A stretch of DNA of 64,000 nt from Kiritimatiellia bacterium (GCA_045536845.1 JAZSOG010000025.1:159993-223992); one strand, 5' to 3'. Positions 9,297 through 31,671 are shown, counted from the stretch's first letter. Numbers and translations: made by a program. The notes: generated by a model not told the origin, from the sequence alone.

Positions 9297-9309
9297 AAAA
9301 TGGTATAAT
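9297..9309 (+). promoter_or_regulatory. extended -10 promoter AAAATGGTATAAT, leaderless (ATG 9317)
   Basis: TGgTATAAT ending 7 nt before ATG. Confidence 0.5.
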
Positions 9310-26185: not shown

Positions 26186-26303
26186 CACTTGATTTCAGCG
26201 TAGCAGTTTCGCTATAATACGCGCACCACCTTGAAATGAGGAATGTGAAAGAAAACATCGGAATTGACGATAAAAAGTGCAACGCCAAAGGGGTGTCTCC
26301 CCA
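26186..26303 (+). repeat. island boundary repeat R2 (copy of R1)
   Basis: TTGATTTCAGCGTAGCAGTTTCGCTATAATAC...AATGAGGAATGTGAAAGAAAACATCGGAATTG...AAAGGGGTGTCTCCCCA. Confidence 0.7.
26189..26218 (+). promoter_or_regulatory. sigma70-type promoter in repeat R2
   Basis: TTGATT 26189-26194, TATAAT 26213-26218. Confidence 0.55.
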
Positions 26304-26388
26304 TTTGATCCAAGAGTCCGCGCCAGAGGCGGACGAATATGATGACTGGGACACATGGGATCAGCGCTTCAAGGCTTTGCTGGGCTGA
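26236..26388 (+). CDS. 50-aa ORF carrying the conserved island leader MRNVKENIGIDDKKCNAKGVSP
   Basis: Driven by repeat R2 promoter; first 23 codons ~85% identical at nt level to start of protein A; acidic Trp-rich tail DEYDDWDTWDQRF. Confidence 0.3.
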   Translation: MRNVKENIGIDDKKCNAKGVSPHLIQESAPEADEYDDWDTWDQRFKALLG

Positions 26389-27937: not shown

Positions 27938-28806
27938 TGATCGTTGACTTCCACGTCCATTCTACGGCAAGTGACGGCACGTTTGCGCCGCGCGACATCG
28001 CGGCGGAAGCTGTGCGCGGCGGATATGCCGCGATTGCGCTCACCGACCACGACAACTGCGACGGGATCGGCGAGTTCCTTGGCGCGGAGCCGGGGCTAAA
28101 GAAAGTCGCTGGCGTGGAACTTTCGATAGAGCCAGGGGTTGGGTTTGACAAGTTCCATCTCCTTGCGCTCGGCATTGACCCGGCGAACGAATCGCTCAAG
28201 GCGTTCCTCAAGAGCATCCTTGACGGGCGCAACGCGAGGAACGAGCGCATCGTCGGCAACTTCAGGCGCATCGGCATCGAGATGGTCGACGTGCCGAAGG
28301 GCACAAGGCCTGTCTACGACTATGCCCATGGCGATGTCCTCGCGCGTCCGCATTTCGCGCGCTGGCTTATTGACAACGGATATGCGGCCGATATAGGAGA
28401 GGCGTTCGCAAAGTATCTTCTCCCAGATTCGCCCGCCGAGACGCGGTGCTACGAGGAGCGCTATCATCCGTCGCAGGAAGAGTCGTTTCGCATCGTCCAC
28501 GCGGCTGGTGGGCTCTGCGTGATGGCGCACCCAAAGTATTGGCGGCGCGAGTGGAAGACGACGGAGCCAGACTATGCTGCGGCTGCGCACGAACTTGCGC
28601 GGTTGAAGGAGAAGGGGTTGGACGGGCTTGAGGCGCTCTACCGCGCGAATTCTGTCGAGGAGAATGTCGCCTTCACGCGCATAGCCGATTCCATTGGCCT
28701 TCTCAAGAGCGCTGGAAGCGACTTCCACGGAGCCAACAAGCCGACGATTCCGCTTGGCATGCAAGTGTCGGAATCGTTCATCGCCCCGCTGCTTGAGCGG
28801 CTTTAG
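27934..28806 (+). CDS. PHP-domain (TrpH/YciV-like) phosphoesterase
   Basis: MIVDFHVHSTASDG...IALTDHD PHP motifs. Confidence 0.85.
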   Translation: MMIVDFHVHSTASDGTFAPRDIAAEAVRGGYAAIALTDHDNCDGIGEFLGAEPGLKKVAGVELSIEPGVGFDKFHLLALGIDPANESLKAFLKSILDGRNARNERIVGNFRRIGIEMVDVPKGTRPVYDYAHGDVLARPHFARWLIDNGYAADIGEAFAKYLLPDSPAETRCYEERYHPSQEESFRIVHAAGGLCVMAHPKYWRREWKTTEPDYAAAAHELARLKEKGLDGLEALYRANSVEENVAFTRIADSIGLLKSAGSDFHGANKPTIPLGMQVSESFIAPLLERL

Positions 28807-28875
28807 CGGTGATGCATTGGGGAGAGACCCTGTTTGAAGTTGCTAATTTGCACTAAACTTGATAATTTTGTTAAG

Positions 28876-28932
28876 TTATAATTTTTCTGTTGAGTGTTTG
28901 TGCGCATATATGCTAAAATAAGTGCGCACATA
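28876..28932 (+). promoter_or_regulatory. AT-rich vapBC promoter with paired palindromic boxes (putative antitoxin operator)
   Basis: TTATAAT -10-like at 28876-28882; TTGTGCGCATAT (28899-28910) and AGTGCGCACATA (28921-28932) share self-complementary TGCGCA core; RBS AGGAGG before ATG 28943. Confidence 0.4.
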
Positions 28933-28942
28933 AGGAGGAAGA

Positions 28943-29194
28943 ATGAATATAACTTTGGCAGCGCCGCCCAATGTCATCCAGAATGTTCGGTGTTGGGCTG
29001 AAGAGCAGGGGACAAGTCTCAACCAGTATATTCGCGATTTGCTGATTGCGAAGGATCGCGAGATTCGTCTTGAGCGCAAGTCCCTTGCTGACGAGTTCTA
29101 TTCTTTTGCGATGGCGAACTCTATCGAGATGGAGCCTGGATACAAGTATAGCCGCGTTGATGCCGCCGAGCGGTCGTTGGAGTGCGACAAATGA
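28943..29194 (+). CDS. vapB: antitoxin of VapBC-type toxin-antitoxin module
   Basis: 83-aa ORF immediately upstream of and overlapping PIN-domain gene; AT-rich promoter with palindromic TGTGCGCA boxes upstream. Confidence 0.6.
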   Translation: MNITLAAPPNVIQNVRCWAEEQGTSLNQYIRDLLIAKDREIRLERKSLADEFYSFAMANSIEMEPGYKYSRVDAAERSLECDK

Positions 29195-29598
29195 GGTTCT
29201 TTGACACGAATGTCCTTGTCTATGCCGCGAGTAGGCAGGATCCGCGCAAAAGGGAAATCGCGCTCGGTTTGCTGCGGCATGCGCTTGAAGTGAACCACGA
29301 CGGGGTGATTTCGCTTCAGATACTCCAGGAGTTCACCAACGTCATGTTGAAAAGGTCCCTTGCGACGGACGAGCAGATCGAGGGCTACTACTCGTATTAC
29401 TACCGTCTCGTCAGGAGCGAGGTGACGTCGGACATGCTGCGCGAGGCGATCCACATTCGGCGCCAATACGGAATACAGTATCACGATGCCGTGATGATTG
29501 CAGCGGCGAAGAAGCTTGGGTGCCATGAAATTGTCACGGAAGACCTGAACGACGGACAAGTCTACTGCGGCATGGCCGTGGTCAATCCATTCAAATAA
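29191..29598 (+). CDS. vapC: PIN-domain ribonuclease toxin VapC
   Basis: MRFFDTNVLVYA (Asp in first strand), conserved acidic residues EDLND..., 135 aa; ATGA overlap with antitoxin. Confidence 0.8.
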   Translation: MRFFDTNVLVYAASRQDPRKREIALGLLRHALEVNHDGVISLQILQEFTNVMLKRSLATDEQIEGYYSYYYRLVRSEVTSDMLREAIHIRRQYGIQYHDAVMIAAAKKLGCHEIVTEDLNDGQVYCGMAVVNPFK

Positions 29599-29608
29599 AA
29601 TGGGGCGG

Positions 29609-29620
29609 TTTTGGTATAAT
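29609..29620 (+). promoter_or_regulatory. extended -10 promoter TTTTGGTATAAT upstream of secreted protein/rSAM operon
   Basis: GGTTTTGGTATAAT; gene start 29645. Confidence 0.5.
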
Positions 29621-29644
29621 TTCAGGCAAAGGAACGCAACAGTG

Positions 29645-30640
29645 AAAATGAAGATTGGAGTTGGTCTTGCCGCGCTGTCGGCTCTCGCGGCGGAAGGGAA
29701 GGACTTTGACCGCGCCGAGCTGAACGCGATGCTAGACAAGCTCGCCGCCTCGCCGGAACCGAAGGTTCGCCGCGGGCCGCAGGCGACATGCTATAAAATG
29801 GCGATGCCGCAACCTGAGCGCTTCGAGTATGTTTGCAAGAAGTGCGGAACGCACACCGTCTATCCTGCGAATACGCGGCAGATGGCCAGCTGGCTTGCAC
29901 GTTACCGCGACGACGAGGCAAGTCTCAAGGCCATTGGGCTCGACATCTCGCTCGATGAGTCGGTGCTTTGCCAGAAGTGCAAGTCGGCAAAGGATATTGG
30001 ACTTCCTGAGGAGCTTGGCGTCCCAACTGGCGGAACGATTATCGACAGACCTAAAGAAGAGGCGGCGGCTAAGGAGTTTGGATGGGAAATCGGCGGCAGA
30101 GTTGAAATAATCCATTGCTACGACACCTCGGACATTTACTATGTTTGGCCTACGCCCAGAGACTGTTGGATAAGCGCAAAGTATGTGTCGGAGACGGGGG
30201 AAATTCTTGGCGACAGCGTGAATGTCCGCATCGCGCCGCGAATCGACGCCAAGGTGGTGTGGCTTGTCAGCAAGTCCGACAAGCCGGTTAGGCGCCTGCC
30301 CGCCAAACCGGGCGATCCTGCGGAGTGGGTGCGTATAGAGGCCAGAAAGGAGTGGTTCCAGATAAGCGAAGAGACGACAGGCCGGCATAGTTTCCCCGTG
30401 CCCAAGAAGTTGTTGGGGGATTTGTCCTATGGCAGTGGGGCTTCCTCCAATCCTGCCCGCTTCAACAAACTGGCTTGGGTCATCGACGGCAAGCGGACGA
30501 TTGTCCGCACCTATGACGCAAGGATTTTGAAGGCGTTCCTGACCGGCAAGACGATTTGGAAACGGGAGTTTGACGAGGAGGTTTCTGTCAAGAATGCGCT
30601 TCCCCGCCTCAGGGAGCTGCTGGGAGAGCCGAAGAAGTGA
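29645..30640 (+). CDS. secreted hypothetical protein with two CxxC pairs, translationally coupled to radical-SAM/SPASM gene
   Basis: Signal peptide MKIGVGLAALSALAA; YVCKKCGTH...LCQKCKSAKD zinc-ribbon-like; stop TGA overlaps GTG start of next gene. Confidence 0.5.
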   Translation, partial: KMKIGVGLAALSALAAEGKDFDRAELNAMLDKLAASPEPKVRRGPQATCYKMAMPQPERFEYVCKKCGTHTVYPANTRQMASWLARYRDDEASLKAIGLDISLDESVLCQKCKSAKDIGLPEELGVPTGGTIIDRPKEEAAAKEFGWEIGGRVEIIHCYDTSDIYYVWPTPRDCWISAKYVSETGEILGDSVNVRIAPRIDAKVVWLVSKSDKPVRRLPAKPGDPAEWVRIEARKEWFQISEETTGRHSFPVPKKLLGDLSYGSGASSNPARFNKLAWVIDGKRTIVRTYDARILKAFLTGKTIWKREFDEEVSVKNALPRLRELLGEPKK

Positions 30641-31623
30641 CGACGATTCTTCCATCTGTCGCCGTTCTGGAGATGACGTACCGCTGCAACCACGCGTGCA
30701 GGTTCTGCTCGTGTCCGTGGTTCGCGGGAATGCTGAAGCCCGGGCCGGAGATGGAAGTAGACGAGTGGAAGCGGCTTATCGAGGCGTATGCGTCTGTGGG
30801 CGTGACGCAGTTTTCGTTCACCGGTGGCGAGGCGCTCCTGAAGGAAGGGTGCCTTGAGCTGATGGACTTTGCGTCGAAGCGGGCGCAGGCGGGGCTTCTC
30901 TCCAACGGACGCGCCATGACGGAAGATGTCCTGCGGTTCTGCGCCGAGCGCGGCATACACGTCATGATGAGCATGCCGGGCCTCACGTCGTTCGCGGCGA
31001 ACACCGACAGCGACACGTCCGTTGAACACATTCTCTCCATGTTCGGCAGGGCGCACGAGCTTGGCTGCGCGACGACCGTCGGCATCGCCGTCACGAAGCT
31101 CAATCTGCCAGAGCTCTACGAGACGATTTCCGCCGCTCTCGTCGCTGGCGCGGATTCACTGCTCCTCAACCGCTTCCTCCCGGGAGGACGCGGCCTTTCG
31201 CATCCGGAGCTTATGCTGACGGCGGAGGAGGTGCGCCAGATCGCCGATGTCGCGGAAGAGGTTCTCTCTCGCGCGAAGCGCCACGGGCATTTCGGGACGG
31301 AGCTTCCCGACTGCATGATCGACGCTGGGAAATACGAGTATCTCAACGTCACGACCGGCTGTTCGGCGGCGACGGACTTCTTCACCGTCGGGCCGAACGG
31401 GATGCTGCGCGTCTGCAACCACAGTCCGGTCGAGCTCGTGAAGTGGGACGAGTGGGAGAAACTCCCGGAATGCGGGGAGTGGATGCACTACGTGCGGCAC
31501 GACTATCTGCCGAAGATGTGCGACGGTTGCGACAAGGCCGCGAAGTGCCTTGGCGGTTGCCGAGAGGCCGCGCGCGTGTTCAGTGGCTCGCCAACCGCCC
31601 CCGACCCGTTGATGGAAGGGTAG
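30637..31623 (+). CDS. radical SAM / SPASM-domain maturase
   Basis: CNHACRFCSC (Cx3Cx2C) 4Fe-4S/SAM motif; C-terminal SPASM CSAATDFFTVGPNGMLRVCNHSP...CDGCDKAAKCLGGC (Cx2Cx5Cx3C). Confidence 0.85.
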   Translation: MTTILPSVAVLEMTYRCNHACRFCSCPWFAGMLKPGPEMEVDEWKRLIEAYASVGVTQFSFTGGEALLKEGCLELMDFASKRAQAGLLSNGRAMTEDVLRFCAERGIHVMMSMPGLTSFAANTDSDTSVEHILSMFGRAHELGCATTVGIAVTKLNLPELYETISAALVAGADSLLLNRFLPGGRGLSHPELMLTAEEVRQIADVAEEVLSRAKRHGHFGTELPDCMIDAGKYEYLNVTTGCSAATDFFTVGPNGMLRVCNHSPVELVKWDEWEKLPECGEWMHYVRHDYLPKMCDGCDKAAKCLGGCREAARVFSGSPTAPDPLMEG

Positions 31624-31648
31624 GCGGGTCTTCGCCTTGGGCGGCTAT

Positions 31649-31660
31649 TTTTGGTATAAT
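31649..31660 (+). promoter_or_regulatory. extended -10 promoter TTTTTGGTATAAT upstream of purA (near-leaderless)
   Basis: TATAAT ends 11 nt before ATG 31672. Confidence 0.5.
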
Positions 31661-31671
31661 ATGGGCCAGTT

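Follow-up and report, generated by a model that had tools for sequence, protein, structure and literature searches.

What does a radical-SAM/SPASM enzyme modify when the gene in front of it encodes a protein without any recognisable domain? This question is raised by two overlapping genes in a 64,000-nucleotide (nt) stretch of DNA from Kiritimatiellia bacterium (GCA_045536845.1, JAZSOG010000025.1:159993-223992). The whole stretch is called the window here; all position numbers refer to it, and both genes lie on its + strand. The product of the first gene, referred to below as the partner, was put forward in an earlier note on this DNA as the most likely substrate or partner of the enzyme encoded by the second. 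Radical-SAM/SPASM enzymes are a main source of new post-translational chemistry. To our knowledge almost all characterised members act on short peptides, the anaerobic sulfatase-maturating enzymes (anSME) and QhpD being the rare cases that act on proteins. The reading favoured here is that the two genes form a self-contained operon for a radical-SAM/SPASM enzyme and its dedicated protein substrate, which would be modified at a conserved A-x-C-Y motif. We put its probability at roughly 0.55, taken jointly with the assignment of the enzyme as a cytoplasmic protein with a SPASM auxiliary-cluster domain and without the recognition element (RRE) of systems for ribosomally synthesized peptides that are modified post-translationally (RiPP systems). 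A SPASM maturase with a cognate substrate is a known kind of system; what is new here is the enzyme clade, the substrate domain and the proposed modification. No published description of the pair was found in the searchable literature, and no curated model of it either.

Linkage and layout of the two genes

Homology searches returned 1381 homologs of the enzyme at E≤0.001. An ortholog was present in 323 species genomes (one genome per species), and linkage was counted in the best 80 of these loci, with enzyme identities of 45–98%. Full-length orthologs of 45–58% identity came from Victivallis/Lentisphaerae, Akkermansia, Planctomycetes, Clostridia, Bacteroidetes, Melainabacteria, Elusimicrobiota, Myxococcota, Omnitrophica and further groups. 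When the flanks were searched with profiles, a partner-family open reading frame (ORF) was located at most 5 kb from the enzyme gene in 74 of the 80 loci, with one to five copies each and in more than ten phyla; in 70 of these 74 the partner was upstream on the same strand. Half of the six loci without a detected partner have no upstream sequence. From the partner side, five out of six homologs, each sampled independently, were adjoined by the enzyme gene, usually with a 4-nt overlap. P0016, P0089 and P0110, in three different neighbourhoods, are each followed by the enzyme gene with this overlap, P0090 is arranged likewise, and at the P0094 locus three partner copies surround one enzyme gene; together they represent five different neighbourhoods. 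The co-occurrence in other genomes that the earlier note had suggested looking for was found from both sides, and in its pairing of substrate or partner it is the partnership that this linkage establishes, the role of substrate being the proposal made here.

All-against-all clustering of the neighbouring ORFs of 52 distant loci left the partner family as the sole conserved neighbour of the enzyme. Among these loci no conserved protease, transporter, exporter, RRE/PqqD-like or small-ORF family was detected near the enzyme, nor pqqA, B, C or D or a gene of tetrapyrrole or other cofactor pathways as conserved neighbour. Diverged partner copies stand in tandem, for example four in each of the loci L057, L065 and L075 (Bacteroidetes) and five in a Myxococcota locus (L082), and one to five such partners per enzyme is the pattern of substrates rather than of enzyme subunits.

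Several Kiritimatiellae metagenome-assembled genomes (MAGs; L013, L012+L027, L019+L028, L024+L038, L034+L036) contain the enzyme twice, in diverged forms with identities of about 80% and about 95% to that of the window. Most copies have their own partner, L038 being an orphan. Two ORFs in which partner and enzyme are fused (L023 4239-5981 and L028 4335-5888) were not used as Rosetta-stone evidence, as the sequence at their junctions resembles a frameshift or a deletion in the place of the 4-nt overlap more than a designed fusion.

In the window, the GTG start of the enzyme gene overlaps the stop codon of the preceding gene, as had been described. The partner TGA (30638-30640) and this GTG share the 4 nt GTGA (...AAG AAG TGA / GTG ACG ACG...), and GGGAGAG, a Shine-Dalgarno-like run, precedes the enzyme start at 8-9 nt. 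The partner gene is real, but the length of 346 amino acids (aa) and the start at 29645 given to it before did not hold: the former arises from ATG 29600, a codon 5' of the -10 element, and the latter is a Lys codon. The start was placed at GTG 29642 or ATG 29648 because the closest homologue (P0001, 98% identical) has 332 aa and because of the position of the -10 element. The leader then measures 21-27 nt and contains an AGGAA Shine-Dalgarno sequence. The gaps on either side of the pair are 43 bp (29599-29641) and 48 bp (31624-31671), which leaves a hidden precursor ORF no space; no conserved small ORF was detected nearby, in agreement with the earlier note, which had seen no RiPP precursor in the vicinity. 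With its own promoter motif in front, and a terminator-like hairpin with a purA promoter copy beyond it, the pair thus stands as a bicistronic unit of its own (Table 1).

The enzyme and the partner protein

The Cx3Cx2C motif reported for the enzyme gene is formed by C17, C21 and C24, and the protein scored 63.7 bits against PF04055 (cut-off 29.5), which places it in the radical SAM superfamily. Of the SPASM motif, which had been called full, the Cx2Cx5Cx3C part is present (C295–C308), within the spacing C226; C242-x12-G-x4-C260; C295-x2-C298-x5-C304-x3-C308, but the usual eighth, final Cys is absent. The ortholog alignment has an invariant D323-P324 instead, and D323 is a possible substitute ligand for the absent Cys. 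The Pfam SPASM model was not among the matches of this protein at E≤0.01; the SPASM grouping is backed by full-length alignments to SPASM profiles and by matches to SPASM folds.

No curated NCBIfam family reached its cut-off with the enzyme, and the profile classification proposed as a check in the earlier note thus assigned it to no characterised housekeeping sub-family. The best scores were those of PqqE (TIGR02109; 81.3 bits, cut-off 381.35), NirJ2 (65.7, cut-off 500), AhbD (56.5, cut-off 500) and MftC (55, cut-off 265), and the anSME profile was not among the 25 best of the 48 NCBIfam matches. TIGR04133 (rSAM_w_lipo), which we take to be a SPASM family paired with a lipoprotein-type partner, gave 39.3 bits against a cut-off of 425, and the enzyme belongs to a different family. 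If TIGR04133 is indeed paired in this way, it would embody the same idea, a SPASM enzyme accompanied by an exported protein. The Akkermansia ortholog scored 36 bits on TIGR03906 (QhpD; cut-off 453), and a Bacteroidales ortholog 86.7 bits on NirJ2 and 70.7 bits on AhbD. A sequence search of the PDB with the enzyme retrieved PqqE (6c8v, E=3.9e-10) and SkfB only, and a PADLOC scan gave weak matches to the viperin core and nothing more.

The AlphaFold2 (AF2) model of the enzyme has a predicted local distance difference test (pLDDT) score of 93.9 and is a partial TIM-barrel matching radical-SAM structures. Fold matches in the PDB were SkfB (6efn, E=2e-17), SuiB, CteB (5why), anSMEcpe, TigE, PqqE and ChlB at 14-19% identity, all of them peptide- or protein-modifying SPASM/twitch enzymes. 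The match to anSMEcpe extended over the whole chain (TM-score 0.72-0.75), with 15-18% identity in the structural alignments. The radical-SAM core begins at residue 17 and an N-terminal RRE domain is absent. In the cultured Akkermansia glycaniphila Pyt, the RefSeq label of the enzyme, WP_067772328.1, is 'radical SAM/SPASM domain-containing protein' and that of the partners, among them WP_067772340.1 and WP_067772337.1, 'hypothetical protein'.

The partner was matched by no Pfam, NCBIfam or PADLOC model, and the absence of a recognisable domain, noted before, is upheld. A PDB sequence search with its profile gave sub-threshold SH3 and Rpb12 matches only, and a Foldseek search of its model against the PDB gave weak SH3/FeoA-like matches and nothing at E≤0.001. 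The protein consists, in this order, of a signal-like N-terminus, a helix, the A-x-C-Y loop, a zinc-ribbon-like unit with two CxxC pairs, an SH3-like beta insertion and a C-terminal alpha/beta domain. Across phyla, A-x-C-Y is the most conserved element. Its A, C and Y are invariant in both alignments (A1 and the cross-phylum A2), and 341 of the 411 family sequences have the motif followed by a CxxC after 12-13 residues. Within the AF2 model (pLDDT 78), confidence is lowest, the ends aside, in the A-x-C-Y loop, which is situated between the helix, conserved as ELNAMLDKLAASPEP, and the beta-hairpin of the zinc-ribbon-like unit. Interpretation of A-x-C as a lipobox was rejected, as M or T at position -1 misfits the lipobox consensus known in general.

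The two CxxC pairs pointed out earlier are C65/C68 and C110/C113. All four Cys are invariant, with about 41 residues from pair to pair across the family, and C50 in A-T-C-Y is the fifth invariant Cys. The zinc-ribbon-like unit (residues ~59-115) is modelled as a beta-hairpin, at residues 57-75, plus a helix. Matches to zinc-ribbon and Rpb12 profiles were weak and sub-threshold only, and the CxxC unit is presumed to bind zinc. Fourteen family members, such as the L082 and L087 copies (Myxococcota, Omnitrophica), have Asp instead of the second Cys in the first CxxC (C-P-x-D-G), which would be in keeping with a metal site where a carboxylate can serve as ligand. As also stated before, the partner has no C/S-x-P/A-x-R sulfatase motif; the context of its Cys is A-T-C-Y-K-M-A, and a sulfatase domain, a CxxCH motif and a known cofactor-binding fold were likewise absent from it. 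The SH3-like insertion in the middle is variable and is missing from forms of 244-273 aa. PF08239 (bacterial SH3) did not match the window protein; many homologs have a precomputed match to it, 'faint' where shown, and paralogs scored 19-27 bits.

The N-terminus of the partner is signal-peptide-like by appearance, with MKMK, a hydrophobic stretch of 13 residues and then ALAAE, and is almost invariant in the partner alignment. In relatives the matching place is taken by N-termini of the Sec, lipobox or twin-arginine (RRKFLK) type, most members carry such signals, and the window partner is probably exported. In a Thermoguttaceae locus (L011 2530-4960), four partner copies stand in tandem, one frameshifted and one truncated. 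The N-terminus of each copy is of the twin-arginine type (MTENERRKFLK...), with a lipobox-like Cys behind it, which would imply export of the folded protein by the twin-arginine translocation (TAT) pathway in this lineage. Larger signal-less proteins that carry the partner core at their C-terminus were also found directly upstream of the enzyme, fused to TPR repeats (L052, L066 and L086, Clostridia), to GAF and MshEN (L074, Syntrophaceae) or to DUF4116 repeats (L055, Lentisphaeria).

The partner has 202 close homologs. For the wider family an exhaustive profile search gave at least 934 clusters (50% identity), among them proteins in which the domain stands two or three times in tandem. The cross-phylum consensus starts with a signal peptide, lipobox, TAT signal or transmembrane segment, then L..LA.S..P and G-A-M/T-C-Y. 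After 12-13 residues C-x2-C/D follows, and after another ~41 residues (LDES.F)C-x2-C, FL.G and PLK..LPRLRELLG. A homology search with alignment A2 was dominated by Kiritimatiellae sequences and brought no new names.

One partner sub-family has kept the zinc-ribbon, SH3-like and C-terminal parts and has lost the N-terminal helix and the A-x-C-Y loop. Its members (P0270, P0277, P0280, P0289, P0317; L092-L128; rumen metagenomes) carry in addition a DUF1287 or YkuD L,D-transpeptidase domain at the C-terminus, a hint that the role of the shared core is related to peptidoglycan. Of 41 metagenomic loci returned, 37 had a recognisable copy of this sub-family, and the enzyme was present in none of these 37, 12 of which have at least 1 kb of downstream sequence, where the enzyme normally sits. 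This loss of linkage together with the helix/A-x-C-Y segment ties the enzyme to that segment.

Table 1. Positions of the features of the operon and of the genes next to it in the window.
Feature	Position	Strand	Basis or remark
Partner gene, 332 aa	29642..30640	+	GTG start; alternative ATG 29648 gives 330 aa
Putative signal-peptide-like N-terminus, MKMK + IGVGLAALSALAA + EGK	29642..29698	+	Sequence, hydropathy
A48-T49-C50-Y51, invariant A-x-C-Y motif, proposed modification site	29783..29794	+	Alignments
Zinc-ribbon-like unit C65-x2-C68 ... (LDESVL)C110-x2-C113	29834..29980	+	Alignments, AF2 model
Radical-SAM/SPASM enzyme gene, 328 aa	30637..31623	+	GTG start
Radical-SAM cluster motif C17-x3-C21-x2-C24 and invariant C26	30685..30714	+	Sequence, ortholog alignment
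SPASM auxiliary-cluster cysteines C226, C242, C260, C295, C298, C304, C308	31312..31560	+	Invariant in 20 orthologs from several phyla
Invariant D323-P324 of the enzyme	31603-31608	+	Stands where the eighth SPASM Cys would be
Extended -10 promoter-like element TGGTATAAT of the operon	29612..29620	+	Recurring 9-mer
Terminator-like hairpin and T-run closing the bicistronic unit	31632..31654	+	Consensus match only
purA promoter motif, another TGGTATAAT copy	31652-31660	+	Directly after the hairpin
Antitoxin-like ORF (VapB-type), 83 aa, outside the module	28943..29194	+	HicB/DUF6364 matches below cut-off; family assignment weak
PIN-domain toxin (VapC-type), outside the module	29182..29598	+	Likely start ATG 29191; PF01850

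Proposed maturation and rival explanations

The enzyme would bind the newly made partner via the conserved N-terminal helix, and a 5'-deoxyadenosyl radical would abstract hydrogen from Cys50 and/or Tyr51 in the flexible A-x-C-Y loop. The reaction would likely form a thioether or C-C cross-link within the molecule or else oxidise the Cys to formylglycine, and the evidence favours none of these chemistries. A thioether would have SkfB, CteB and QhpD as analogues, and near-invariant D-E residues adjoin the second CxxC. A Tyr-based C-C cross-link as in PqqE would fit the missing SPASM Cys and the invariant Asp, and formylglycine would fit the anSME-like architecture and the logic of modification before export. 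The enzyme has no export signal and most partners carry Sec, lipoprotein or TAT signals, so any interaction must precede export. In this Kiritimatiellae-type organism the modified partner would then be exported by its Sec-like signal peptide. The SH3-like insertion and the paralogs fused to DUF1287 or L,D-transpeptidase domains suggest a cell-envelope module and point to the envelope as its destination.

Several known systems resemble this arrangement in part. Like the anSME (AtsB, ChuR, anSMEcpe), the enzyme combines radical-SAM and SPASM domains without an RRE; its proposed target is likewise a full-length, not yet exported protein in the cytoplasm, with the Cys a few tens of residues past the signal peptide. 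Unlike in the anSME systems, the presumed substrate is a small zinc-ribbon-like protein with A-x-C-Y and not a sulfatase with C/S-x-P/A-x-R, the genes of enzyme and substrate are strictly adjacent and translationally coupled, and the eighth SPASM Cys is missing. PqqE, which works with PqqA and PqqD, cross-links a Tyr and has an Asp ligand in its auxiliary cluster II. It is the best sequence and profile match, yet far from its cut-off, and shares with the pair the Asp at the place of the last Cys (D323) and a Tyr, invariant in the partner motif. The partner family, however, measures 150-330 aa against a peptide of 20-30 aa, has no E-x3-Y context and is not accompanied by pqqABCD. QhpD, a SPASM enzyme too, puts Cys thioethers (to Asp/Glu) into QhpC, a small Cys-rich protein bound for the periplasm, and the partner has a near-invariant D-E (LDES) beside its second CxxC; here, in contrast, qhpA, B and E are not present and the N-terminal extension of QhpD is absent from the enzyme. 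The sacti- and ranthipeptide synthases SkfB, CteB and PapB, the first two being the top structural neighbours of the enzyme, have Cys thioethers as the core of their chemistry and commonly act on substrates present in several tandem copies, but they possess an N-terminal RRE, short leader-bearing peptides, and proteases or exporters in their clusters.

The linkage would also be explained if the partner were an accessory subunit, either an electron-transfer protein with Zn or a rubredoxin-like Fe(Cys)4 site or a docking protein, for an enzyme whose true substrate is a peptide, protein or small molecule without linkage to the pair. Its invariant double CxxC resembles rubredoxin or zinc-ribbon sites, tight 1:1 translational coupling as in the window is typical of the subunits of a complex, and an enzyme without an RRE may for that reason need a helper. 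We nevertheless regard this as unlikely. Export, lipoprotein or TAT signals are found on most partners and not on the enzyme, as many as five diverged copies in tandem beside one enzyme would be unusual for a subunit, and Asp takes the place of one Cys in 14 members; moreover, the paralogs that keep the four Cys without the helix and A-x-C-Y are not linked to the enzyme, and no other conserved neighbour is available as substrate. More doubtful still is a role of the enzyme in making or remodelling a small-molecule cofactor (a tetrapyrrole, as for AhbD and NirJ) to be bound by the partner via Cys and Tyr, which are classical axial ligands. NirJ2 and AhbD are indeed among the best-scoring NCBIfam profiles, but with scores far under their cut-offs of 500, and the best fold matches are peptide maturases. 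The TAT-type signals of the Thermoguttaceae copies would suit this role, TAT exporting folded, cofactor-loaded proteins, but most partners are of the Sec type, and Sec exports unfolded chains. Cofactor-pathway genes are not conserved neighbours, and the partner has neither CxxCH nor a known cofactor-binding fold.

Very improbable is an ordinary anSME that serves sulfatases encoded elsewhere and is incidentally adjacent to the partner. Kiritimatiellae are rich in sulfatases, and anSMEcpe, also RRE-less, is among the best structural matches. Against this stand the low identity to anSMEcpe, the failure of any NCBIfam family to reach its cut-off with anSME outside the 25 best profiles, the lack of C/S-x-P/A-x-R in the partner, the adjacency kept in 74 of 80 genomes and the absence from the whole orthogroup of the eighth SPASM Cys that anSME has. 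Equally small is the chance of a classical RiPP cluster with an overlooked small precursor, in which the 332-aa protein would serve for immunity, transport or as a scaffold. SkfB, SuiB and CteB, the nearest fold relatives, are RiPP maturases, but the two short gaps and the absence of a conserved ORF of at least 40 aa in or near the operon speak against a precursor, as does the lack of an RRE, protease, exporter or conserved small-ORF family in the distant loci.

Several observations weigh against the dedicated protein substrate preferred here. Some full-length family members do not have the Cys (A-T-R-Y, D-R-G-Y, D-H-G-F), the enzyme orthologs of L010, L038, L083 and L091 have no partner nearby, and at the P0112 locus (partner array L136) two partner copies occur without an enzyme within 3 kb. 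The signal-less TPR or GAF-MshEN fusions mean that export is not intrinsic to the system. The comparison with the sub-family that has lost A-x-C-Y is confounded by its extra C-terminal fusions and by short contigs, and the four-Cys unit, instead of holding structural zinc, could be redox-active like rubredoxin. On the tetrapyrrole-modifying NirJ2 and AhbD the enzyme has scores about as high as on peptide maturases. Lastly, every functional statement about the pair is one that we infer.

More tentatively, at somewhat less than even odds, the pair would be a widespread, previously unrecognised maturation system (at least 323 species, at least 934 partner clusters, more than ten phyla) with a new modification on the Cys-Tyr of a novel zinc-ribbon domain. 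Candidates for this modification are a cross-link derived from the Cys or Tyr and a protein-derived cofactor. If true, the pair would join sulfatase maturation as a second case in which a radical-SAM enzyme is dedicated to protein substrates of folded size that are often exported. The module of enzyme and candidate substrate is compact, has a sharply defined candidate site in A-x-C-Y, a natural negative control in the site-less paralogs, and occurs in gut and rumen anaerobes including the cultured A. glycaniphila. As the pair is in no curated family library, thousands of annotations as 'hypothetical protein' or 'radical SAM protein' could be resolved. Should the domain that is modified be a module of the cell envelope, the system may bear on the envelope biology of anaerobes of the PVC superphylum and the Bacteroidetes.

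Promoter motif and upstream vapBC cassette

The 9-mer TGGTATAAT, which had been named as the partner gene's own promoter, occurs 11 times in the window, exclusively on the + strand, against 0.05 copies expected, and is therefore a genuine recurring -10-type motif and no chance match. The copies start at 9301, 15600, 17097, 29612, 31652, 46025, 51934, 53509, 55744, 57662 and 58539. Another motif, TGNTATAAT, was counted 17 times, likewise on the + strand only. TGGTATAAT looks like the dominant extended -10 promoter of the organism, with a strong transcriptional strand bias across the window. Upstream of it no good -35 element was found for the partner/enzyme operon.

The vapBC module reported directly upstream of the pair was recovered. 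The PIN toxin scored 44.7 bits on PF01850 (cut-off 23.6) and its gene is overlapped by the 83-aa ORF through ATGA, an arrangement by which the two were classed as VapBC. The same pair of 83-aa and 135-aa genes also precedes the module in L001. The AT-rich stretch, taken earlier as a hint of acquisition, is a mild dip in G+C content (0.53-0.55 at 28.5-30 kb versus 0.57-0.63 around it) that belongs to the vapBC cassette and its promoter and not to the pair. In L012, a close relative with 92-98% identity over the aligned flanks, the gene order is pmm-PHP-(76 bp)-partner-enzyme-purA-uppS-cdsA and vapBC is absent. The cassette, including its own promoter region, corresponds to an indel of about 850 bp (window ~28806-29653 versus L012 3942-4018). 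As L012 is syntenic without vapBC, the cassette is the inserted element and the pair is resident. Its insertion is recent; the pair itself is syntenic and chromosomal. Horizontal acquisition of the pair along with the AT-rich stretch was rejected, only vapBC being an indel.

TGGTATAAT precedes the partner gene in L012 as well, despite the lack of vapBC. At L012 3992-4009 it ends 6 nt before the partner ATG, and the partner mRNA of that organism may be leaderless or nearly so. In L016 and L001 the block of vapBC and the pair is found in a different neighbourhood. Genes of the toxin-antitoxin type, namely DUF433/DUF5615, YoeB/YefM, VapBC and HipA-like, flank the module repeatedly in unrelated genomes (L010 3960-4576; L001 1857-2476 and 5316-5971; L038 4008-5372). 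This may be a coincidence, or the module may sit in variable regions.

An Rfam scan of 24-34 kb gave no RNA family, and no tRNA was found near the vapBC cassette. A 54-bp stretch (gcagtttcgctataata...gaaagaaaac, window 26203-26256), in which a TATAAT is found and a 50-aa ORF (26236-26388) begins, lies 2.6 kb upstream of the block of vapBC and the pair. It recurs with 98% identity at 3160-3213 of L016, another Kiritimatiellae MAG, where it abuts this block. Such a displacement suggests a rearrangement or insertion breakpoint.

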